Assembly (NCBI GenBank): GCA_965224245.1
Contig: OZ245046.1
Coordinates: forward strand, 1,088,001 to 1,152,000
Length of the DNA stretch: 64,000 nucleotides
Source: Candidatus Eiseniibacteriota bacterium
GTDB taxonomy: Bacteria > Eisenbacteria > RBG-16-71-46 > CAZAMP01
Direction: 5' to 3'
Shown: positions 12,929 to 25,791 of the stretch, one piece after another
Position numbering within the stretch: position 1 is the first letter of the stretch
Layout: each line of letters starts with the position of its first letter
Made by a program: the position numbers and the translations under genes
The notes under the pieces: generated by a model
Seen by the model: only the letters and a program-made list of their open reading frames with translations
Told to the model about the DNA's origin: nothing
Databases searched by the model: none

Positions 12929-15900
12929 TCACCGCCGGAGCAGCAGCTTCACCGACGCGATCGGCTCGCCGTCGAGCCGGAGCCGGGCGAAGTAGACTCC
13001 GCTGGGAGCGGCGTTTCCGGTCGCGTCCCGCCCGTCCCAGACGACCTCGTGGAGGCCGACGTCGATCCGTCCCAGGTCCGCGCGACCGACGAGGCGGCCG
13101 GACACGTCGTAGACGTCCAGCGTCGCGTCCCCGGTGCGAGTCGTCTGGAATCGAAGCCGTGTGCTGGCGTGGAACGGGTTGGGCATCGCGACGAGACGTC
13201 CCGCCGGCGGCTCGGAGGAGATCCCGGGCTCGTCGGTTTCCAGGAGGCCGCCCGGCTGTCGGATGACGAGGTGGCCGTTCTCGGTGCCCTCGGGGTCGAT
13301 CCCCTGCACGCACACGGTCACGCTGCCCTGTGCCGGTCCGCCGCGCAGCAGCTCGGTGGACCAGGTCGGATCGGGAACGGTCAGGTCGGCGAGGAACTCG
13401 TATCCGACCTCCTCCACGGTGACCCGTGCCGTCACCGGAGAGATGTTGTGAATGGTCGCCATGAAATCGTGTGGCGACCCGTCTCCGGGGTAGCTGGCGG
13501 TCTGGTAGAAGCCCCACGGCTCGACGAACGCGACCTCCTGATAGCCCTCGGGGAACGAGAACTCGAGCAACAGCTCCGCCGGCTGATCGGTCGGATTCGA
13601 GATCCGAAGTCCGCCGGCGCCGAGTGCACCCGTGATGCCGACCGTGGCCGTCGCCTCGGGGGCGAGCACGAGATCGGACTGCAGTCGGACGTCGATGGCG
13701 AACGACGCGATGGGGTCGGCGGAATCTCCGCGCCGGTGCAGCTCGATCAGCGTCTGATCCGGGAACTGGGCGGGATCGGTCTCGAGCTGCGCCGACAGAC
13801 ACCGGCGCTCTCCCGCGAACGAAGGGATGCTGTCAAGCTCGGACGCGACCGGGCTCGGAGGAATCTGGAGCGGCCACTCGACGTCGTCCTCGTCCCCCGC
13901 GCAAGCCGATCGCGCGATGGCCAGGAGGTCGGCGGCTTCCTGGTAGCGCCGGCTCGAGACGTCGTTCAGCGTGCCGAACACGTCCGAGTAGAACTCGCCC
14001 CCACCTAGGACGTCCACACCTGACGAGACGCCGCACCGCCCCGCGCGCCCTGTCGTGCCGCCCTTGACGCCGATCGCCATCGGAAACCACGATTGCTGGG
14101 ACGTGAGATAGAACGTGTCCACGGTGGCCAGACCACCGAGCCGCACTACCGTCCAGCTGGCGGTGCCCACGAGGTCGCGGAAGATGTCGTGCTGCATGGC
14201 GATCCGGGTGAGCTTCAGCATGTCGAACGCGCACGAGTACGGGTAGGTGCCGTCGGTGTCCTGGATGTCGAGACCGGCGGGATTCGTGAAGTACGTGTGG
14301 TCGAGACCGGCCGTGGCGGCGCGCGCGTTCATCATGTCCACGAAGTCCTTCGTCGTTCCGTAGTGGTCGGACCAGGTGGCGTCGCCTCCGGTGAGCAAGT
14401 CGGCGACCGCGTAGGAGGCATCGTTGTCCGATTCGGACATCGTCAGGATCAGCAGGGTCTCCAGGCTGAGAAACTCACCCGCGACGAGGGGAGACGTCGT
14501 GCCCGCGATATTGTTCGCGGCCCACGACGGGACCAGGTACACGTCGGAGAGGTCGGCGAGCCCATCCTCGATCATCTCGCAGGCCAGGAGCGCGGTCATG
14601 ATCTTCGTCGTGCTCGCGATCTGCACCTCCTCGAAGAGGCGCCGCGAGTACACGATCGTGTTCTCGCAGTCCCGTGCCATCGACGTCACGCAGCGATGCT
14701 GCTCGGGCTGGCGCCAGGGAAGCAGCGCGTACACGATGCCGCTGTAGCCGTCGTGGTTCGGCGCGCCGATGGCGAGTCCGGCGCGTGAGCCGGCGTTGTT
14801 GTCGAATCGCCCGAAGGTCAGCGACATGCCGAGCCGCTGATCGTTCCAGGCCTGGTAGTCGATCTTCTTCGTGTTGTAGGTGATGTGCGAGGCCACGTCG
14901 AGCCCCGTGGCGTTCCCGTAGAGCACGTGAACGTGGCCCGAGTTGACGACCGAAGCGAGGTTCTGTCCGGGGGCGGAGATCGCGAGGTCGTCGTACGGCC
15001 CCACGGTGAAGCGGCCTGCGGCCACGGCGTACCCGAACAGCTCGTCCGTTCCCGGCGTGCCGTCCACATCCGACTGTGTGAGACGCAGGACGCTGGACTC
15101 GCGGAGGCCGGTGAACGATCCGTCGGCGACGTACACCTGGCCGGCGTTGTCCTTCGTGCCCACGTCGCGCCACGGCTCACCGATGACGAGTGATCGATAG
15201 CCGCTCTCGTCGTCGGTGAAGTTCCCCACCGCCAGCGACCAGCCGAAGTAGGCATTCGATTGGGGCGGTGCGCCCGGCCAGAGGTCGACGGCCGTGTGCC
15301 AGTCGCTCGGGCTGGTGTCCAGGCCCCCGGGGCCGCCTTCGGTGAGGAAGATGCGTCCCTCGTTCGCCAGACCGATCACGGTCATGTGGGGCGCGCCGAT
15401 GATCAGGTCGTCGCTCGGATCCCCCATGACGTGGCCGGCGGCCAGCTTGGCGCCGAACTCACTGTCGGCCGGCGGGGCGCTCAGCCAGTCGGACGCGCTG
15501 AACTCGGTGCGGCGCGGGTCGTCCCACCGGAGTCCCGAGGCGTTTCCGTAGAACACGGACACTCCACCCTGGCGACCGTCCCGGCCGGGTCCGCCGACGG
15601 CCAGGTCCTCGTATCCGTCGTCGTCGAAGTCGCCGACCGCCAGGGCCCAGCCGAAGCGCTCGTCGGCCTGGAAGGCCCCGACCAGGGCTGCGCTGGCGTT
15701 CGGCGAGATGCCGATGCCCGCGATCCCCGGGTAAATGAGAACCGCACCCCCGTTGTTGAAGGTGCTCCCCATCCCGTCGTTGGTGTTGACGAACGGGAGA
15801 GCCACTGCGAGATCGTCGGCGCCGTCGCCGTCGAAGTCCCCTGCGGCGAGGACCCGGCCCATCTCGATGCTGGTGTCGTCCTCCCAGCTCGGATCGATGG

Positions 15901-16243
15901 AGAGCTTGTCCGCGCCCGCGTGCGTGAGCCCGGTCGGGCTCCCGTAGTTGATCGTGACGAATCCGTGATGGCGCGTATCCGGGTAGTCACCTTGCTCGTC
16001 GTGGGGGGAGCCCACGGCGAGGTCGTTGTAGCCGTCGTCGTCGAAGTCTCCGGCGGCCGAGGCCCAGCCGAAGTAGTCCCCTGGCTCGCGAGCTCCCCGG
16101 GACTCCTCCCCTTGACGGATCAAGGAGAGATGGGCGATCGCCGGCTGAAACGTGATCGAGACCGCCAGAGCGGCACCGAGCACTCGCGTCCACCGCCTCG
16201 TTGCGGTACGGACGATCGGGAAGAAACGTCGTTCATGGAACAT
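12929..16243 (-). CDS. FG-GAP (integrin-alpha) repeat + peptidase S11 (D-Ala-D-Ala carboxypeptidase-like) + FlgD-Ig C-terminal domain
   Basis: Repeated 'FG..LA.GDFD.DG.DDLAVG.P'; SxxK 'IASTTKIMTAL', SxN 'SDNDAS', 'FTNPAGLD', 'VKGGTT'; C-terminal 'PNPF...WDGRD'. Confidence 0.88.
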   Translation of the reverse strand: MFHERRFFPIVRTATRRWTRVLGAALAVSITFQPAIAHLSLIRQGEESRGAREPGDYFGWASAAGDFDDDGYNDLAVGSPHDEQGDYPDTRHHGFVTINYGSPTGLTHAGADKLSIDPSWEDDTSIEMGRVLAAGDFDGDGADDLAVALPFVNTNDGMGSTFNNGGAVLIYPGIAGIGISPNASAALVGAFQADERFGWALAVGDFDDDGYEDLAVGGPGRDGRQGGVSVFYGNASGLRWDDPRRTEFSASDWLSAPPADSEFGAKLAAGHVMGDPSDDLIIGAPHMTVIGLANEGRIFLTEGGPGGLDTSPSDWHTAVDLWPGAPPQSNAYFGWSLAVGNFTDDESGYRSLVIGEPWRDVGTKDNAGQVYVADGSFTGLRESSVLRLTQSDVDGTPGTDELFGYAVAAGRFTVGPYDDLAISAPGQNLASVVNSGHVHVLYGNATGLDVASHITYNTKKIDYQAWNDQRLGMSLTFGRFDNNAGSRAGLAIGAPNHDGYSGIVYALLPWRQPEQHRCVTSMARDCENTIVYSRRLFEEVQIASTTKIMTALLACEMIEDGLADLSDVYLVPSWAANNIAGTTSPLVAGEFLSLETLLILTMSESDNDASYAVADLLTGGDATWSDHYGTTKDFVDMMNARAATAGLDHTYFTNPAGLDIQDTDGTYPYSCAFDMLKLTRIAMQHDIFRDLVGTASWTVVRLGGLATVDTFYLTSQQSWFPMAIGVKGGTTGRAGRCGVSSGVDVLGGGEFYSDVFGTLNDVSSRRYQEAADLLAIARSACAGDEDDVEWPLQIPPSPVASELDSIPSFAGERRCLSAQLETDPAQFPDQTLIELHRRGDSADPIASFAIDVRLQSDLVLAPEATATVGITGALGAGGLRISNPTDQPAELLLEFSFPEGYQEVAFVEPWGFYQTASYPGDGSPHDFMATIHNISPVTARVTVEEVGYEFLADLTVPDPTWSTELLRGGPAQGSVTVCVQGIDPEGTENGHLVIRQPGGLLETDEPGISSEPPAGRLVAMPNPFHASTRLRFQTTRTGDATLDVYDVSGRLVGRADLGRIDVGLHEVVWDGRDATGNAAPSGVYFARLRLDGEPIASVKLLLRR

Positions 16244-16541: not shown

Positions 16542-18797
16542 ATGCGGACACGTCTCGGGCGCTACTCGATCGTGGGCAAGCTGGGTCAGGGTGGCATGGG
16601 CGTCGTCTACGAGGGGCTCGACGAGACGCTCCGGCGACGCGTCGCGCTGAAGGTGCTCGCGGAGCCCGGCGACGCGAGCGCCCGCGATCGGTTCCTCCGC
16701 GAGGCCCAGGCCGCCGCCGCGCTGACCCACCCCAACGTGTGCCAGATCTACGAGATCGGAGAGGATGGGGACGAGCTCTTCCTCGCGCTTGAGTTCCTCG
16801 AAGGCCGGCCGCTGGATCAGGCGCTGACGGGCGGTCCTCTATCCGCGCCGGAGGCCGTGGATATCTGTCGGAGCGCGCTGGCGGGGCTGGCGGCGCTGCA
16901 CGGCGCCGGCCTCGTGCACCGTGACCTGAAGCCGTCGAACCTGTTCCTGGTCCGTGACGGCGTGAAGCTGCTCGACTTCGGTCTCGTGCGCCGCGCGTCT
17001 CCCGAGGGACCGGACGATCTCGTCCTCACCCGGCCCGGGACGACCATGGGAACGCCGTTCTACATGGCACCCGAGCAGTGGCGAGGCGAGCCGGTGACCG
17101 CCGCCACCGACCTCTACGCGATGGGGGCGGTCCTGTACGAGATGGTGACGGGAGCGCCGCCGTTTCCCGGGAAGTCCGTAGGGGAGGTTTGCGACGGTGC
17201 GATCCACCGGCATCCGCCGCCGCTCGCGGGCGGGGCGGGCGTCCTGGCCCTCGACCGGGTGGTTCAGCGCGCGCTGTCCAAGCGCCCGGAGGACCGATAC
17301 GGGTCGGCCGCGGACATGGTCGACGCACTCGGCACGATCGGTGGAAGCCGGAACGCGACGGGGAGCGTCGACGCTCCGGTGCGCGCGCTGAAGCGCCTCG
17401 TGGCGATCCCGTTCCGGGTGCTGAAGCCGGACCCCGAGACCGACTTCCTGGCGTTCAGTCTTCCCGATGCGGCCGCCATGTCGCTGTCCGGTCGGCCGTC
17501 GCTGGTCGTGCGATCCACGCACGCGGCCAGCCGGTTTGCGGGAGGACCGCTGGATCCTCCCACGATCGCCCGCGACCTCGACGTCGACGCCGTGCTGTCG
17601 GGCACCCTGGTCCGACACCGCGACCGCGTGCGCGTGAACGCGCAGGTGATGAACGTCCCCGACGGGACCGTCGTCTGGTCACACCAGCTCGAAGGCACGC
17701 TGGACGACCTGTTCGCGCTCGAGGACTCGCTGGCGGGAAGCCTGGCGGCGTCGGTGGAGGGGACGCTCGATGCCGACGTGTCGAACGCGGTCACGCGGGA
17801 GCTGCCGGCCGGCTCGGCGTATCGGAACTACCTGCGCGCAAACGACATCCGCTACTCGGCGATGCGGCCGACGGCGCTCATCGAGGCACGTGACCTGTAC
17901 CGGGCGTGCGTCGACGAGGACGCGACGATGGCGCCCGCGTGGGCAAGATTGGGTCGCATTCACCGCATCATCGCCAAGTACGGCTTCGGCGACGGCGAGA
18001 CGAACCGGCGCCAGGCACGCGAGGCCTTCCAGAGAGCACTCGACCTCGAGCCCGATCTGCCGCTCGCGCACAACCTCTACACGTTCTTCCAGCTCGAGGA
18101 GGAGGGGGACGCCGAGAGCGCCATGGTCCGTCTGCTCGGTCGGGCGAGGGCCCACGGCGAGGATCCCGATCTGTTCGCGGGACTCGTGGCCACGCTCAGG
18201 TTCTGCGGACTGCTCGATGCGTCGTTGGCGGCCTACGAGCGCGCGCGCAGCCTGGACCCGGCGATCCAGACGAGCGTTCACCACACGTACCATCTCGCCG
18301 GCGACTGGGTCCGGGCCGCGGACGCGGACCGGGACGAGCCCTTCTTCCTCCGGCTCGTCTGCTGGGACCACCTGGGGCGGTCCGAGGACGCCGTGGCGGC
18401 GCTGACCAAGGCCGCGAGCCCGGACCAGGCGGGCGTGGAGGGCATGGTCGCCGGCGCGGCGCTGGCGGCGATGACCGATGACCCCGACCGATGCTCGGAG
18501 TACCTACGGCGAATGGCCACGGTCGGCATGCACGATCCCGAGGCGCTCGCGCTGGTCGCGATGATCGCGGCGCGGGCGGATCTGGTCCCGGACGCCCTGC
18601 GGTTGCTGGATCGCGCCGTGGACAGAGGCTTTGCCGCCGCGACGCACATCCTTCGGGATCCCTGGTTCGATTCCGTCCGAGCGGAACCCGGGCTCGCCCC
18701 GATCGCCGAGAAGGCCGAGCGGAAGGTGCAGGCGGCCCGCGCGATGTTCCGGATGTCGGGCGGAGGGGAGCTGCTCGGGGTGGGCACGGGGGACTGA
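16542..18797 (+). CDS. Cytoplasmic Ser/Thr protein kinase with TolB-like domain and TPRs
   Basis: GQGGMG, VALK, HRDLKPSN, DFGL, GTPFYMAPEQ; 'LVAIPFRVL...LDVDAVLSG..RVRVNAQV' TolB-like module; TPRs; 'DPWFDSVR' C-terminal motif; GAGG RBS. Confidence 0.92.
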   Translation: MRTRLGRYSIVGKLGQGGMGVVYEGLDETLRRRVALKVLAEPGDASARDRFLREAQAAAALTHPNVCQIYEIGEDGDELFLALEFLEGRPLDQALTGGPLSAPEAVDICRSALAGLAALHGAGLVHRDLKPSNLFLVRDGVKLLDFGLVRRASPEGPDDLVLTRPGTTMGTPFYMAPEQWRGEPVTAATDLYAMGAVLYEMVTGAPPFPGKSVGEVCDGAIHRHPPPLAGGAGVLALDRVVQRALSKRPEDRYGSAADMVDALGTIGGSRNATGSVDAPVRALKRLVAIPFRVLKPDPETDFLAFSLPDAAAMSLSGRPSLVVRSTHAASRFAGGPLDPPTIARDLDVDAVLSGTLVRHRDRVRVNAQVMNVPDGTVVWSHQLEGTLDDLFALEDSLAGSLAASVEGTLDADVSNAVTRELPAGSAYRNYLRANDIRYSAMRPTALIEARDLYRACVDEDATMAPAWARLGRIHRIIAKYGFGDGETNRRQAREAFQRALDLEPDLPLAHNLYTFFQLEEEGDAESAMVRLLGRARAHGEDPDLFAGLVATLRFCGLLDASLAAYERARSLDPAIQTSVHHTYHLAGDWVRAADADRDEPFFLRLVCWDHLGRSEDAVAALTKAASPDQAGVEGMVAGAALAAMTDDPDRCSEYLRRMATVGMHDPEALALVAMIAARADLVPDALRLLDRAVDRGFAAATHILRDPWFDSVRAEPGLAPIAEKAERKVQAARAMFRMSGGGELLGVGTGD

Positions 18798-18807
18798 CGG
18801 GGCGGTG

Positions 18808-19620
18808 ATGCACACGCGATCGATCGAGAGCTGGGAGCACGATCACGCTTTCGGTCAGGATCGGGTGCGACCCGGCGAACGGCGCACGATGATCGTGATC
18901 GCCATCACCGCCACGACCATGGCGGTCGAGGTCGTCGCTGGCATCCTGTTCGGATCCATGGCACTGCTGGCCGATGGTCTGCACATTGGGCTCGCACGCG
19001 GTCGCCCTCGGCCTGAGCGCGTTCGCCTACGTGTACGCACGGCGCCGCGCGCACGACGAGCGGTTCAGCTTGAGGACGGGAAAGGTCAACGCGCTCGCCG
19101 GGTTCACCGGCGCGATCCTGCTGGTGGGGTTTGCGCTGGTTGCCCCACGGATGAAGATCGCCAGGCTCACGAGGACCACGATCTGCGGTCCGCCTACCTG
19201 CACGTACTGGCCGATGCGCTGACGTCGCTGACGGCCATCTTCGCGCTCGTCGCAGGCAAGTACCTGGGGCTCGACTGGCTGGATCCTCTGATGGGGATCG
19301 TCGGCGCGCTTCTGGTCGCGAAGTGGTCGCGAGGGTTGATCCGGCAGACCCGCCGCGTGCTGCTCGACAGGCAAGCCGCCCCCCGCATCCGGGAGGCGAT
19401 CCGGAGCGGCATCGAGGACGCGACCGACGACCGCATCACCGATCTCCACGTGTGGTCGATCGGACCGGGAATCCACGCGGCCGAGATCTCCCTGGTCACG
19501 CCGAGCCCCGCGCCGCCCGACGCGTACAAGGCACGGCTGCCCGGGGGACTCGGTTTGGTTCACGTGACCGTCGAGATTCACCGCTGCACCGATCCGGTCG
19601 AAGCCGGTGGGCGGCCGTGA
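18808..19620 (+). pseudogene. dmeF: Disrupted CDF-family Co/Ni/Zn efflux transporter (DmeF-like)
   Basis: 'GSMALLADGLH' then an extra T near 18986 (cacattgggctcgcac) shifts 'GSHAVALG...GKVNALAGF' to another frame; central TMs appear deleted near 19140; original frame resumes at 'DLRSAYLHVLADALTS...DLHVWSIG'. Confidence 0.8.
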
Positions 19621-19811
19621 GCGGCGCGCCCCCGGTACTTCCACTAACCTTTTGTTGGTAGGAACGTTGTGCTGCCCGGGGTCGGTATCGGCTGCTCGGC
19701 CGACCTGGCCCGGCTCGCCTCCGACCCGAACGCCGCGTGCGTTCGAGCACGATCCTGGTGTTGCTCTGGCGACAACCGACCGATCACGTCCGATCAACTC
19801 GGAGGCCCGTC

Positions 19812-22800
19812 ATGGCGCATTCGCCCGCCGGCACGCCCGTTCTTCCGTCTCCTTCGCGCGTCGCGGCCATGGCCACCGCCTTGCTCGCGCTCACCGGTGC
19901 GGCCCATGCGCACCTGTCCATCATTCGCCAGGGCTACGAGAGCGCGGAGATCTCGGAGTCCAGCGATCAGCACGGATTTGCCGTGGCGGCCGGTGATTTC
20001 AACGGCGACGGATACGACGACCTCGCGATGGGCGCCCCCCAGGAGGACGGTCCCGCGGGCGCCAACTCCGGCGTCGTGTGCGTGAACTGGGGCTCGGAGT
20101 ACGGCATCACGCACGAGGGCGCAATCGTGTACGACGCCGACGACATGGGGGGGGCCGCCAGCGCCGGGGCGAACCTCGGCTTCGCGCTCGCGTCGGAAGA
20201 TCTGGACGGAGACGGGTTCGACGATCTGATCGTCGGCGCACCCTTCGAGACGGTGAACGGAGCGGCCGGCGCGGGCGCCGTCTACGTCATGACGGGAAGC
20301 ACGCTCGGGCTCGTGCCCTGGCTGCGGATCGACCAGTCCGACCTCGGCGGCACGGCCGAGACGGGCGACTGGTTCGGGTTCTCGCTGGACACGGGGTATC
20401 TCGACGACGACGCGTACCCCGATCTGCTGATGGGTGCCCCCGGCGAGGATACGGCCCGGGGAACCGTGTGGTTTCTCTTCGGAACGAGCACCGGTCCATA
20501 CGGAAGCGCGAACCACATCAATCCCACATACGGCGGCTACTCCACCGGGAGCGGCGATTTCTACGGCTACTCGGTGGCCGCCGGGAACTTCATGGGCGGC
20601 GCAGAAGACGACATCATCGTCGGGGCCCCACACTTTCCCCAGGCCAGTGCGCCGAGCGACCTCGGTGCGGTCTTCGTGACGCCCGGATCCGCGGGCGGCC
20701 CCGATCGGGCGGCGACGCGCCGGTACTTCGCCAACGGCGGGCAGGCCGGCGCCGAGTTCGGACGCTCGGTGGCGGTCGGACACCTCCTCTCGAGCGCGTA
20801 CGACGCGGTCGCGGTGGGCGAGCCGCTCCACGACAAGGGCGGGATCGTGGACGCGGGGCGGGTGACGGTGTATCCGGGCTGGTCGGGTGGTCTCAACACC
20901 GATGCCGCACTTCCGCTGTACAGCTCGGTGGCCGGCGGGGTCGACGAGGCGAGCGACGGATTCGGTCAGGTGCTGGCCGTGGACTACTTCTGGGACGCGA
21001 GCGACGGCTACCAGGACCTCGTCATCGGAACGCCCGGCGAGGGGTTCGGCACGCCCGACGCGTATGGTCAGGTGCAGATCCTCAACGGTGGTCCCTCCGG
21101 GCCCATCGGCGCCTACGGCTGGTTCGGGTTCAACCAGGGGACGCTCAACGAGACGCCCGAGCCGCTCGACGTTCTGGGAGCGTCGATCGCCTTCGGTCGC
21201 TTCGACGGCACCGACCTGGTGAACCTCGCCGTCGGCGCGCCCGGCGAGGACGCATTCGGCGGCATGGTGCACGTGATCGCGCCGTGGCGCCAGGTGTTCA
21301 ACCTGTCGTGCGACAACTCCATCGTCCTCGACTGCGACGAGAACATCTACTTCTCACAGAAGCCCTTCGAGCGGGTTCGGATCGCGTCGACCACGAAGAT
21401 CATGACCGTGCTGATCGCGGTGCAGGCGGTGGAGTGGTATGACGAGCTGTCCTACGACGACGTCTACACCGTTCCGGCGTGGGTGGCCGACCAGATTCCC
21501 GGCTCGCAGGTTCCTCTCTTCGAGGGCGAGACGATCACGCTCCGGGATCTCATGTACACGTGCCTGATGCTCTCGGGAAACGACGCCGCGTTCGCGATCG
21601 CGGACATGATCCAGGGGGGCGAGGGCCCCGACGTGTCGGTGCCGCTGTTCGTGGCCCGCATGAACGCGATCGCGAGCATCCTGAACATGGACGACACGCA
21701 CTTCCACAACCCGGCGGGACTCGACGAGGAGCCCGTGGGCCCGGACCTGGGCGAACACTACTCCACGCCCCAGGACATGGCCAAGCTCAGCGCATATGCG
21801 ATGACGTTCGACACGTTCCACACGATCGCCGGCACCACGGCGTGGCCCATGGTCCGGCACTTTCCGGCCTTCGACATCGCGTGGACGGTCAACAACATCT
21901 TCGCCGGCGTGCTGATGAACAACATCGAGCCGCTCGTCGGCATCAAGGGCGGCTACACGACGCTCGCCCAGAACACCGGCTGCTTCGCGGGCGAGACGCC
22001 CCTCGGCGCGCGATCCATCGCGGGCACGTATCACACGCCCGACGCGCTGAGCGACAACTATGGCCCCGATGCGGGTGCGCTCGTGCAGCTCGGGCTCGGG
22101 TCGTGCGGGTTTTCGTTCGAGCTACCCGACGAGTGGTCGTATACGGACAGCCCGATCAACATCGGTCGCGTGTCGTCGGGTGTGGGGAGTCGTCGCGGAT
22201 TCTCCTCGGGCATCCCGCGAGAGTTCCATGGCGACATGGCGTACTCGGTTTACCGGACCTCTTGGGACACGGGGCTGCCGTCCTCGTTCGAGGCGTGGAT
22301 CACGCACGTGGCCGAGCTTCGGGGCCGGGCCTCGTATGAGCTCGGCGCGAGCCACCACGACGGACACGGCCCGATCAAGATCACGAACGTCGGCGACGCC
22401 ACCGCCTCGGTACAGGTGTGGCAGCCGATCGACGTCACGACCGTGGACCTCGAGCCGGGGGAGACGGCCCTGGTGCCCGAGTACCTCGGGCGATGGGCGC
22501 TCGGCTTCCCGGTGCGATTCACGTCGAACGGCGGCGAGAGCCCGATCGACCTCGACGTGGAGATCCCCTGGCGCCATCTCGTGACGGCGCCGGAGGCGCC
22601 GACGTCCGATCCCGTGTACCAGACGACGCTCATGCGGGAGAGCGACATCCGGGATCAGGTGGAGATCCGGACCGAGGGGATGGATCCGGCACCCGACTTC
22701 CACTCCATCGTCGGTCACGTGGAAGGGGTGCTGCTCGAGGCTCCGGATCCGGCGGGGACCGAGCCGCCGGCCGCCATCACGCTTCGCGCACCGACGCCGA

Positions 22801-23063
22801 ACCCGTTCCGCGCGGCGGCCCGGATCTCGTTCGACCTCTCCCGCGCGGGAGAGGTCGGTGTCGAGATCTACGACGTGTCGGGTCGCCTCGTACGCACGTT
22901 CGCGCCCCAGCGCATGGCGCCCGGAGGCTGGGGTCTCCGGTGGGACGGCCGCGACGACGGCGGCGCCGAGGCGGCCAGCGGCGCCTACTTCTACCACGTC
23001 GTCGTCGACGGTGAGGTCGCGGCCACCGGCAAGCTCACCCGCATCGTCGACGCGGCGGGGTGA
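19812..23063 (+). CDS. FG-GAP repeat + peptidase S11 + FlgD-Ig C-terminal domain (paralog of 12929-16243)
   Basis: GGAGG RBS; mature N-terminus 'AHLSIIRQG' matches the paralog's 'AHLSLIRQG'; FG-GAP repeats; 'IASTTKIMT', 'SGNDAA', 'FHNPAGLD', 'IKGGYT'; 'PNPF...WDGRD' tail. Confidence 0.88.
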   Translation: MAHSPAGTPVLPSPSRVAAMATALLALTGAAHAHLSIIRQGYESAEISESSDQHGFAVAAGDFNGDGYDDLAMGAPQEDGPAGANSGVVCVNWGSEYGITHEGAIVYDADDMGGAASAGANLGFALASEDLDGDGFDDLIVGAPFETVNGAAGAGAVYVMTGSTLGLVPWLRIDQSDLGGTAETGDWFGFSLDTGYLDDDAYPDLLMGAPGEDTARGTVWFLFGTSTGPYGSANHINPTYGGYSTGSGDFYGYSVAAGNFMGGAEDDIIVGAPHFPQASAPSDLGAVFVTPGSAGGPDRAATRRYFANGGQAGAEFGRSVAVGHLLSSAYDAVAVGEPLHDKGGIVDAGRVTVYPGWSGGLNTDAALPLYSSVAGGVDEASDGFGQVLAVDYFWDASDGYQDLVIGTPGEGFGTPDAYGQVQILNGGPSGPIGAYGWFGFNQGTLNETPEPLDVLGASIAFGRFDGTDLVNLAVGAPGEDAFGGMVHVIAPWRQVFNLSCDNSIVLDCDENIYFSQKPFERVRIASTTKIMTVLIAVQAVEWYDELSYDDVYTVPAWVADQIPGSQVPLFEGETITLRDLMYTCLMLSGNDAAFAIADMIQGGEGPDVSVPLFVARMNAIASILNMDDTHFHNPAGLDEEPVGPDLGEHYSTPQDMAKLSAYAMTFDTFHTIAGTTAWPMVRHFPAFDIAWTVNNIFAGVLMNNIEPLVGIKGGYTTLAQNTGCFAGETPLGARSIAGTYHTPDALSDNYGPDAGALVQLGLGSCGFSFELPDEWSYTDSPINIGRVSSGVGSRRGFSSGIPREFHGDMAYSVYRTSWDTGLPSSFEAWITHVAELRGRASYELGASHHDGHGPIKITNVGDATASVQVWQPIDVTTVDLEPGETALVPEYLGRWALGFPVRFTSNGGESPIDLDVEIPWRHLVTAPEAPTSDPVYQTTLMRESDIRDQVEIRTEGMDPAPDFHSIVGHVEGVLLEAPDPAGTEPPAAITLRAPTPNPFRAAARISFDLSRAGEVGVEIYDVSGRLVRTFAPQRMAPGGWGLRWDGRDDGGAEAASGAYFYHVVVDGEVAATGKLTRIVDAAG

Positions 23064-23132
23064 CCGCGGTCCCGGTGACCCCGATCGGGCGTTTCGCACG
23101 ATCGTCTTGCAGGTTTCTCCCTCCGATTTCGA

Positions 23133-23153
23133 ATGGTCGAGGACCACGACCAT
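23133..23153. promoter_or_regulatory. Inverted repeat ATGGTCG-N7-CGACCAT upstream of the DCC-like gene (operator or leader hairpin)
   Basis: Perfect 7-bp arms, extendable by CGA/TCG flanks, ending 9 bp before the AAGGAGGA RBS. Confidence 0.4.
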
Positions 23154-23179
23154 TTCGACGCGAAGGAGGACCCGACGCG

Positions 23180-23659
23180 ATGACCACGACGATCCGCGAC
23201 CAGATCGCGCGCGACGAGATCGCGCGCGATGACATGTCGATCGACTGTCCAGAGCTGTGGCCGCCTCTCGAATCGCGACGTCCGACGCTGCTCTACTCCG
23301 GTACCTGACGGTTCTGTCGATGGGCGGCGCGGGTCGTCGCCAGGATCGATCGAAGCCGCCGGGTGAGCCTGTTGCCGCTGGCCGATCCCGAGGCCGGGCG
23401 ACTCCTGGCCGACGTTCCCGAGGATCGACGCCTCGGGTCCTGGTGGCTCGTCTCGTCCGATGGCAGGCCCGTCCCGGGAGATCGAGGGGGTGGCATCGCC
23501 CTCCTGACGGCGCTGGGGCCCACGCACCGTCTGGGACGCGTGCTCGGCGCGCTCGGCCTGTCGGCCACCGTGGACGCTCTGGATCGCTGGCTGTCCGTCA
23601 CCCGCGGACGCCTCGGCCGGTTCGTCCCGGACGGTCCGGCGCCTCGCTGCTTTCCCTAG
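23180..23659 (+). CDS. DCC1/DUF393-like thiol-disulfide oxidoreductase, candidate selenoprotein (UGA at 23306-23308, UxxC)
   Basis: AAGGAGGA RBS; ORFs 23060-23308 and 23363-23659 are in one frame; read-through gives 'LLYSGT-U-RFCRWAARVVARIDRSRRVSLLPL', matching the DCC pattern 'LYDGxCxFC'; hairpin immediately 3' of TGA. Confidence 0.8.
23309..23348 (+). promoter_or_regulatory. Putative bacterial SECIS hairpin
   Basis: CGGTTCTG (23309-16) pairs with CAGGATCG (23341-48); GGCGGC/GTCGTC upper stem; apical loop GCGG starts 21 nt after UGA. Confidence 0.65.
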
Positions 23660-23739
23660 GCGGGGGCGGTCCCGCCGGGCGGCACCTCGGGCCGACCCTG
23701 GCGGATGCCGACCGGGCGATCGAGGTGTAGAATGTCCGG

Positions 23740-25791
23740 ATGACCCGAGATGCACGCGCCCACACTCGGTCTTGCGGACCCGTCCGAGGCTCGCGACGCG
23801 GGCGCTGGCGGGCGCTCAGCCTCGTGCTGGTTCACGTCGTGGCGGGGCTCCATGTGCTCCACTGGTGGCGCACCGGCCGGACGATCACCCCGGTCGAGCC
23901 CAGCGAGGCCATGCAGACGCTGGGCGAGGGGCTGGTCAACGCCGGCTTCGTCCTCTTCGTCGTGCTCATCCTGGGTACGATGATCTTCGGCCGGTTCTTC
24001 TGCGGCTGGGCCTGTCACATCGTCGCCCTCCAGGATCTCTGCACGACGCTTCTCCGGAAGCTCCGGATCGAGCCGAGGCCGTTTCGCTCGCGCCTTCTCG
24101 TGTACGTCCCCCTGGCGGCGGCCGTCTACATGTTCGTCGCCCCGACGGTCGTGCGGCTGTGGCTCGGGCAGTCGTTCCCGGGACTCCGCGCGCACTTCGA
24201 GACCGACGACTTCTGGGCACGCTTTCCGGACTGGCCGATCGCCGTGCTGACGTTCGTGGTGTGTGGGTTCGTGGCCGTGTGGGTGCTCGGGAACAAGGGG
24301 TTCTGCACCTACGCGTGTCCGTACGGTGGCATCTTCGGGCTGGCCGATCGGGCCGCGCCGGGCCGCATTCGCGTGACCGATGCCTGTGACGGCTGCGCGC
24401 ACTGCACGGTGAGCTGCACCTCCAACGTTCGCGTCCACGAGGAGGTGCGAACCTGGGGCATGGTGGTCGATCCGGGCTGCATGAAGTGCACGGACTGCAT
24501 CAGCGTCTGTCCGATGGGCGCGCTCCACTACGGCTTCGGCGCACCCGGCCACAAGCGCCGGACGGATGCTCCTCCCGTGCGGCCTCGATACGACTTCACC
24601 TGGCCTCAGGAGATCGCGATGGCGGCGATCTTCCTGGTGTCGATCGTCACGTTCCTGGCGCTCTACGACGCGGTGCCGCTTCTGATGGCGCTCGGTCTGG
24701 CCGCGATCACCACGCACGTCGTGATGACCCTGGCTCGTCTCCGGACGGATCGGAACGTGACGTTCGCGCGTCATCGCCTGCGGACCGCCGGGCGCATGCA
24801 GCGCCGTGGGTGGGTGTTCGCGGTGCTCGCGGTCGTGTGGACGCTCTTCACGCTCCACAGCGCGGCCGTGCAGGCGAACGCGCTGGCCGGACAGCGGGCG
24901 GTGGCGGCGGCGCGAAAGGCACCGGCGGCACCGGTGGACGCGCTGGAACACGGCCGGCGACTCCTCGAGCGTGCCCGCTCGTGGGGTCTGTTCGAATCCC
25001 CACAGCTCGACGTTCGCCTGGCGGCGGTCAACGCGCAGCTCGGCGACGTCGGCGCCGCCGAGGCACTCTACCGGCGGGCGCTCGCGCACGAGCCCGATCT
25101 TCCGGAGGCCCACCACGCGCTGGCCCGGATCGCGCGAGAGCGCGGCGATCTTCCGGGGGCCCTGAAGCACCTCGAGGCCGTGGTGAACGAGGAGCCCGAG
25201 TTTCCGAGCGGTCACAACGATCTCGCCGAGGTGCTCCTGGATCTGGATCGCAGTGGGGATGCCGTCGCGGCGATGGAGGTGCTCGTGGCGCGGCGGCCGC
25301 ACCATCTTCCGTTCAGGGTGACGCTGGCGGTGGTGACCGCGCACGACGGACGGGTGGACGAGGCGCTCGCGCAGCTGCGCGCGATCGCCGAGGCACATCC
25401 CGAGGACGCGTCGTCGCGGCTCATGTACGGCCTCATCCTCGCCTCCGAGGGTCGGCTGGAGGACGCGCTGGCGTCGGTGCGCGCGTCGCTGCGTGTGGAT
25501 CCGGAGAACGCCGAGGCGCACTACACGTGCGCGCGGCTCCTGATCCAGCTCCGCCGCACCGACGAGCTGGCGACACATCTGGAGGAGGCGTGCCGGCTGG
25601 ATCCGTTCCAGCCCACGTACGCCACGGCGTGGGCGGCACTGATGGCGCGCTCCGGCCGGGCCGATGCACTCGTGGCTGCGTTGCGGGCCCGGGCGGCGGG
25701 CGATCGAGCCGCACGCTTCCGGCTGCTCCACCTCCATCGCGCGCTCGGCCACGAGGCGGATGCGGGGGCGCTGGCGCGGGAGTTCGAGTGA
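23740..25791 (+). CDS. Membrane 4Fe-4S binding protein (NapH/YccM-like) with C-terminal TPR domain
   Basis: 'GRFFCGWACH', 'FCTYACPYG', 'CDGCAHCTVSC', 'CMKCTDCISVCP'; several TMs; TPR helices in the C-terminal third; TAGAAT ends 6 nt before ATG. Confidence 0.88.
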   Translation: MTRDARAHTRSCGPVRGSRRGRWRALSLVLVHVVAGLHVLHWWRTGRTITPVEPSEAMQTLGEGLVNAGFVLFVVLILGTMIFGRFFCGWACHIVALQDLCTTLLRKLRIEPRPFRSRLLVYVPLAAAVYMFVAPTVVRLWLGQSFPGLRAHFETDDFWARFPDWPIAVLTFVVCGFVAVWVLGNKGFCTYACPYGGIFGLADRAAPGRIRVTDACDGCAHCTVSCTSNVRVHEEVRTWGMVVDPGCMKCTDCISVCPMGALHYGFGAPGHKRRTDAPPVRPRYDFTWPQEIAMAAIFLVSIVTFLALYDAVPLLMALGLAAITTHVVMTLARLRTDRNVTFARHRLRTAGRMQRRGWVFAVLAVVWTLFTLHSAAVQANALAGQRAVAAARKAPAAPVDALEHGRRLLERARSWGLFESPQLDVRLAAVNAQLGDVGAAEALYRRALAHEPDLPEAHHALARIARERGDLPGALKHLEAVVNEEPEFPSGHNDLAEVLLDLDRSGDAVAAMEVLVARRPHHLPFRVTLAVVTAHDGRVDEALAQLRAIAEAHPEDASSRLMYGLILASEGRLEDALASVRASLRVDPENAEAHYTCARLLIQLRRTDELATHLEEACRLDPFQPTYATAWAALMARSGRADALVAALRARAAGDRAARFRLLHLHRALGHEADAGALAREFE

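Follow-up and report, generated by a model that had tools for sequence, protein, structure and literature searches.

The window, which is the whole stretch of 64,000 nucleotides of DNA analysed in this study, carries a DCC1-like gene whose frame is interrupted by a TGA at the active-site motif. The DCC1-like gene is preceded by a gene for an FG-GAP/peptidase S11 protein and followed by a gene for a 4Fe-4S/TPR protein. The features of the locus are as follows.

23163..23169, + strand: Shine-Dalgarno-like AAGGAGG, 10 nt before the ATG, read from the sequence and putatively functional
23180..23659, + strand: DCC1-like (PF04134) gene, ATG at 23180 to TAG at 23659, 159 codons if the TGA at codon 43 is read through
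23195..23224, + strand: tandem duplication of 15 nt (DQIAR/DEIAR) within the N-terminal extension, which is of low conservation
23297..23317, + strand: motif S-G-T-U-R-F-C, a DxxCxxC variant located where the first core helix begins
23306..23308, + strand: in-frame TGA, predicted selenocysteine 43; only TGA, TGC or TGT is found at this codon in homologous DNA
23323..23341, + strand: SECIS-type hairpin GGCGGCG-CGGGU-CGUCGCC, 7 bp, with a 5-nt loop 21 nt after the UGA, -10.3 kcal/mol
23438..23440, + strand: Ser87 codon, where most Sec-form relatives of the subclade have a third Cys (ECWW) that the window copy does not have

A preliminary description of the locus had joined two open reading frames of the same frame through the TGA at 23306 into LLYSGT-U-RFC, and this was borne out, the frame from 23180 to 23659 having a single internal stop, the TGA at 23306-23308 (codon 43, context LLYSGT*RFC). 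Its placement of the TGA at the first Cys of the CxxC pair was also found to be correct, since the codon aligns with a column of at least 90% conserved Cys in 40 aligned proteins. The HMM search that it had proposed gave a match of the read-through protein, with C standing for U, to PF04134 at 28.0 bits against a gathering cut-off of 27.8 (a margin of 0.2); the match extends over residues 37-146 and model positions 1-111 of 113, and it is obtained only with the read-through protein spanning the TGA. The literal DxxCxxC of canonical DCC proteins is absent from the window copy, which reads SGT-U-RFC with Ser in place of Asp. The C-terminal end motif is common to the window protein and its homologues. 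Logan contigs from three of four sequencing runs contain the TGA with zero differing letters, whereas in X4, the fourth run, the codon is not spanned by any contig; no RNA run was listed among those containing the stretch. The agreement of the three runs argues against an assembly error, but it is not independent support because they come from one sample, which is probably the source of the window. A scan of 22950-23850 for promoters and terminators found none.

The protein search has given 84 relatives, named in their sources as 'predicted DCC family thiol-disulfide oxidoreductase YuxK' or 'DUF393 domain-containing protein', and 37 of the 84 have a precomputed PF04134 match. The motif is spanned in 37 relatives (36 with Cys and 1 with Trp), and the other 47 start directly behind it, as is typical of proteins whose Sec has gone unannotated. 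The Trp form belongs to a JGI database cluster of 10, in which three full-length members (P0015, P0237 and P0242) have Trp at the position of Sec and the other seven are shorter; read from the proteins rather than from their DNA, this residue is probably a TGA to which a gene caller has assigned Trp.

The codon itself was read in homologous DNA. A metagenome scan with a C-terminal alignment query identified 42 loci, and 38 of these reach the motif (L061, L066, L076 and L077 have no motif and were left out). They comprise 31 with TGA and 7 with TGC, which is not an unbiased ratio because the query was built mostly from truncated proteins, and none with TAA or TAG. The same TGA is present in an Actinomycetota MAG (G061), and a match was found in 103 of the 401 genomes of its class, the best 30 loci of these being 7 TGA and 23 TGC or TGT forms. 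Hence, at least 38 loci besides the window (31 metagenome loci and 7 assembled genomes), on unrelated contigs and genomes, carry TGA at the motif codon and the rest carry TGC or TGT, and the Cys/Sec pairs sought by the preliminary description do exist. Two genomes flagged as having one TGA (G240 and G270) were rejected, as their stops lie upstream of the motif and are not Sec-site TGAs. A TGA at the second site (UxxU) was found in none of the 82 loci examined.

The window's genome (97% complete) was found to encode selB (324 bits), tRNA-Sec (71.9), selA (515.8) and selD (378.4), all above the curated cut-offs, so that the full selABCD set which the preliminary description had wanted checked is present. 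An in-frame TGA lies inside selD itself, with a GGU loop 20 nt after the UGA. A rough TGA scan of the genome has yielded 351 TGAs with coding-like flanks, 16 of them having a SECIS-like hairpin and a Cys-type motif; the scan is incomplete and missed the DCC gene itself, which has a low codon score. Eight of the 16 candidates were run against HMM libraries and matched (seleno)protein models, the TUGYCR-motif and ArsC matches exceeding the NCBIfam cut-offs. These further TGA genes with SECIS-like hairpins (L111-L118, on G000:C1) are located as follows.

4827150, - strand: thioredoxin
2360128, + strand: UshA-like
4920231, - strand: AhpC/redoxin
319722, - strand: AhpC/redoxin
2704515, - strand: TUGYCR-motif
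4156964, + strand: Omp28-related
4437671, + strand: deiodinase-like
4276597, - strand: ArsC-type

As eight TGA candidates match selenoprotein-type models, the host is predicted to use Sec widely and, judged by its gene content, its genome is selenoprotein-rich. Two other TGA candidates of the same contig, at 3620613 and 2478027 (both - strand), have long flanking frames and strong hairpins (DDDDP-TGA-TIS and YTCLR-TGA-NEI); they fit no family checked and may be chance or new selenoproteins. A separate canonical DxxCxxC DCC gene, with no stop, is also encoded in the genome.

Among the seven TGA genomes of the class of G061, selA exceeds its cut-off in all seven, and selB and tRNA-Sec in six each; the seventh genome has a partial selB match adjoining selA. 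In each of the three tested genomes that lack selA and selB, the Cys form is present. Genes of the sel system were also found in 10 of 13 Cys-form genomes tested and selA in 262 of the 401 genomes of the class, where seven out of seven has a chance of about 0.05 among kin that are not independent; the association of TGA with Sec machinery is therefore statistically weak. G076, a genome in which neither selA nor selB was found, has a weak match to the tRNA-Sec model (52.7 bits), which may represent an ordinary tRNA with a long arm.

TGA and Cys forms also differ in the RNA. The hairpin was defined on a gap-free alignment of the 39 TGA forms, of which 37 distinct rows were scored; its arms, 23323-23329 with 23335-23341, correspond to nt 18-24 with 30-36 from the UGA and enclose the loop CGGGU. 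Pairing was found in 96.5% of the 259 cells, 0 of 500 shuffles being as high and every slid register being lower, and RNAalifold recovered the same hairpin at 23323-23341 unprompted. The closing pair 18-36 changes from G-C to C-G in 9 rows, and these compensatory swaps combine a Trp-to-Phe codon on one side with a synonymous Ala change on the other. The same columns in 18 close Cys forms are 62.7% paired, which is no better than shuffles. The base at four four-fold degenerate third positions in the stem is fixed among TGA forms (37/37, 37/37, 31/32 and 37/37) and free among Cys forms (9/17, 8/18, 8/15 and 8/13), whereas elsewhere in these genes GCG makes up only 131 of 331 Ala codons. The mean hairpin energy is -10.1 kcal/mol for the TGA forms and -4.9 kcal/mol for the Cys forms. 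The contrast with the interspersed Cys forms, in statistics that ignore relatedness, is hard to explain without RNA-level selection on the hairpin, and it supplies the SECIS covariation that the preliminary description had called for.

None of the 7 stem pairs is lost from the window copy, and G occupies loop position 2 in 39 of 39 TGA forms. The bSECIS model, as described in the sections of PMC13188914 consulted here, has a loop of 3-9 nt, an upper stem of 4-16 bp, G in the first two loop positions, a spacing of 16-37 nt and an energy of -7.5 kcal/mol or lower, and the window hairpin agrees with it (5 nt, 7 bp, G at position 2, 21 nt and -10.3 kcal/mol). For the thioredoxin-type TGA gene of the host, prediction gives a hairpin with the same dimensions (7 bp, a loop of 5 nt and a spacing of 21 nt). 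Equilibrium folding of the window copy gave a pairing probability of about 1.0 for the hairpin in nt 13-45. Extending the fold to nt 55 or 75 lowers it to 0.0, in favour of a rival fold with a predicted advantage of about 6-7 kcal/mol. The rival fold is common in the family, the hairpin being dominant in 23, 11 and 5 of 37 TGA forms for folds ending at nt 45, 55 and 75, respectively.

The hairpin of the preliminary description was a different one, beginning at the base after the TGA. A single-sequence fold from 23309 does exist (-20.4 kcal/mol), but as a SECIS it was rejected, since its register is 65.8% paired with 365 of 500 shuffles as high; the register tested is the computed minimum-energy one, the preliminary description having given no exact pairing. 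Against shuffles this fold has z of -1.79 at 45 nt and -0.37 to +0.94 for the other four lengths.

The conserved TGA, the covarying hairpin and the selA, selB, selC and selD genes of the host support the earlier proposal of a Sec-containing DCC member. The preliminary description had also named what would speak for a mere nonsense mutation or error, namely relatives without TGA, a hairpin without conservation and a genome lacking selB and selC; the opposite was found on each point. On comparative grounds, Sec recoding in the subfamily can hardly be doubted, and it is very probable in the window's genome as well, where Sec would be incorporated by the encoded machinery. The window gene is most likely translated in full to a 159-residue UxxC selenoprotein, which is likely to be a thiol-disulfide reductase. 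SelB carrying GTP and Sec-tRNA would bind the G-containing hairpin loop with the ribosome at the UGA, leading to insertion of Sec, as in established bacterial Sec biology. The selenolate of Sec43, placed by the predicted fold and the motif at the N-terminus of the first helix, would then attack the substrate disulfide; Cys46 would resolve the mixed bond with formation of a selenenyl-sulfide, which the cellular thiol system would reduce again. SelB-directed insertion, selenolate attack, resolution by Cys and re-reduction by thiols form the standard mechanism of UxxC proteins.

The AlphaFold2 model (pLDDT 84.7) has a strand at 36-39 and then U43 at the start of the helix 44-56, i.e. at a strand-helix junction; residues 1-30 have low pLDDT. 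Residue 87 lies just before the third strand, in what we take to be the cis-Pro loop position, which presumably faces the active site in thioredoxin folds. The top structural matches are GST-N, glutaredoxin and thioredoxin domains, all of them weak (Foldseek best E 0.048; VIA best Z 5.2 with rmsd of 3.1 over 78 residues). Foldseek gave no match at E <= 0.001, and a PDB sequence search with the alignment returned no credible relative. Disulfide reduction is the probable activity, considering the predicted thioredoxin-like fold together with the motif.

A protein with Sec inserted may instead have its main role in metalloid or sulfur handling, for example by using U-x-x-C and a third Cys to bind or reduce As(III), Se or persulfide. 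Of the 17 TGA forms in the window's subclade, 14 have the third Cys (xCWW, residue 87); it is also present in 45 of the 47 truncated database forms but in only 3 of the 34 Cys forms, an association drawn from kin. Methyltransferase genes of one cluster adjoin 5 of 57 loci, and the member at L040 (2018-2800, - strand), beside a Sec-form DCC gene, is arsenite-methyltransferase-like with an in-frame TGA of its own (WAG-TGA-VAGA). Directly upstream of the Sec-form DCC genes at L043, L050 and L065 lies a cluster resembling rhodanese, metallo-beta-lactamase-fold and MFS transporter genes, the names being given by eye. These neighbours and the third Cys favour such a role. On the other side, the window copy has Ser at 87 and no such neighbours, a conserved operon was not found across the 57 loci (synteny is at clade level only and most neighbours are unrelated), and the characterised member, Arabidopsis DCC1, is reported in the text consulted of PMC7598583 to reduce a protein partner. 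A metalloid or sulfur role thus appears unlikely as compared with disulfide reduction.

A quick tree of 119 rows was built with the site masked. A single branch of 94 rows (support 84) contains all 39 TGA forms together with 18 Cys loci and 37 forms from the database, and every one of the 25 rows outside it is Cys. The TGA label requires 13 changes on this tree, of which only 2 are forced by well-supported branches; repeated Sec/Cys switching in the subfamily is therefore likely from the tree but not proven. Among 206 genomes of the phylum to which the window belongs, only the window's own genome was found to carry the subfamily, and 60 closer relatives have only distant Cys-type DCC genes. 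This distribution suggests horizontal gain, in which a Sec-type allele probably arrived ready-made. The GC3 of the gene is 0.81 against 0.87-0.89 for its neighbours, which is weak evidence for transfer, as the family range of 0.68-0.92 includes it.

A recent arrival could be a mere passenger, i.e. a copy from a real selenoprotein subfamily that is poorly or not read through in this host, through SelB mismatch or a rival fold hiding the SECIS, and that yields a 42-residue fragment. The restriction to one genome of the phylum, the canonical Cys DCC gene already present there, the rival fold predicted in longer RNA contexts, the absence of the third Cys of most Sec-form relatives and the small N-terminal duplication are all compatible with this. 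It is nevertheless very improbable, as the frame, apart from the TGA, stays open up to the conserved C-terminal motif and is preceded by a strong Shine-Dalgarno sequence, all 7 stem pairs are retained, the hairpin geometry fits that of SECIS elements predicted in selenoprotein genes of the host itself, and the host has at least eight other TGA genes of selenoprotein-type families. A nonsense mutation, a sequencing error or an alternative code (TGA for Trp or Gly) finds some support in the Trp of the three JGI proteins of one cluster and is largely refuted by the TGA of at least 38 other loci, never TAA or TAG and always opposite the catalytic Cys, by the agreeing contigs of three runs, by the TGA that terminates the upstream gene at 23061-23063 and by purifying selection on synonymous stem positions in TGA forms only.

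The replacement of the motif Asp by Ser, noted in the preliminary description, is true of the window copy, but it is not tied to the Sec form. Of the 39 TGA forms, 23 have D at this position, 10 have S and 6 have A, and S is present in 24 of 36 database Cys forms. Asp-to-Ser was thus rejected as a Sec-linked change; with Ser common in Cys forms and Asp in most TGA forms, it is a subclade trait.

In comparison to the DCC1-like/DUF393/YuxK oxidoreductases (PF04134; Arabidopsis DCC1), the window protein has in common the Pfam match and the CxxC position. It differs from canonical DCC proteins by the TGA at the first Cys, the in-frame SECIS-type hairpin and Ser for the motif Asp, and it belongs to a distinct subfamily with the C-terminal GRFVPDGPAPRRYP motif, the DxxCxxC paralogue of the host lying outside the branch. 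From these sequence traits it is classed as a Sec variant subfamily and not as a canonical DxxCxxC DCC member. With bacterial UxxC thioredoxin-fold selenoproteins it shares the predicted Sec in place of the N-terminal Cys of CxxC, a coding-region SECIS that agrees with the model and Sec and Cys forms interspersed on the tree. It falls in another Pfam family than the UxxC proteins present in Table 1 of PMC13188914, which are Sec-thioredoxin (PF00085), Sec-glutaredoxin (PF00462), DsbA-like, redoxin and ArsC-like (NF041106) proteins.

As far as the searched text of this 2026 review goes, it covers 119 bacterial selenoprotein families or subfamilies, some taken from Haft and Tolstoy 2025, and a term search for PF04134, DCC, DUF393 and YuxK, Table 1 with its 119 families included, gave 0 matches. 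The DCC family is likewise absent from the main text of PMC13326102 (BSepDB) and PMC12013277 (deep-Sep). NCBIfam 20.0 has no model for P0001, P0002, P0015 and P0033 at E up to 1, and other host selenoproteins are recognised by it. A literature search combining selenoprotein or selenocysteine with DCC, DCC1-like, DUF393 or YuxK found no paper; it did not extend to Haft and Tolstoy 2025 or to Deng et al. 2026, and the supplements of the latter could hold the family.

If the reading of a Sec-containing subfamily is true, one Pfam family would be added to the list of bacterial selenoproteins; this is an addition to a well-known kind of recoding and the mechanism is not new. The annotation of 47 of the 84 database homologues, which are now truncated 'hypothetical' fragments without the active site, could be corrected. 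As Sec marks the catalytic nucleophile, it would identify the attacking Cys and support a redox role of bacterial DCC/DUF393 proteins, which is so far largely a prediction. Matched alleles of the two types, with the SECIS kept in the Sec type and lost in the Cys type, would offer a natural system for Sec-to-Cys switching and cross-phylum SECIS function. A wider picture may be put forward only tentatively, and taken whole it is somewhat doubtful: an uncatalogued bacterial selenoprotein subfamily within DCC1/DUF393, spread over at least two phyla and transferred with its SECIS intact, in which alleles switch repeatedly between Sec and Cys and, within one subclade, those with Sec mostly have a co-varying third Cys (U-x-x-C ... 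C), which might form a three-chalcogen redox or metalloid-binding centre of a kind not described for DCC proteins.

Some observations were also made on the surroundings of the gene in the window. The downstream gene at 23740-25791 (+ strand) encodes a membrane-type 4Fe-4S binding protein fused to TPR repeats, and no sign of its link to the DCC gene was seen in other loci. The upstream protein (19737-23063, + strand), with FG-GAP repeats, a peptidase S11 domain and a C-terminal FlgD-type Ig domain, and the product of 12929-16243 (- strand) are paralogous proteins of 1100 residues, 32% identical over their length. The gene at 18808-19620 (+ strand), which we take to be a cation-diffusion-facilitator, is split over two frames (ORFs 18631-19620 and 18974-19222) and has an apparent internal deletion.
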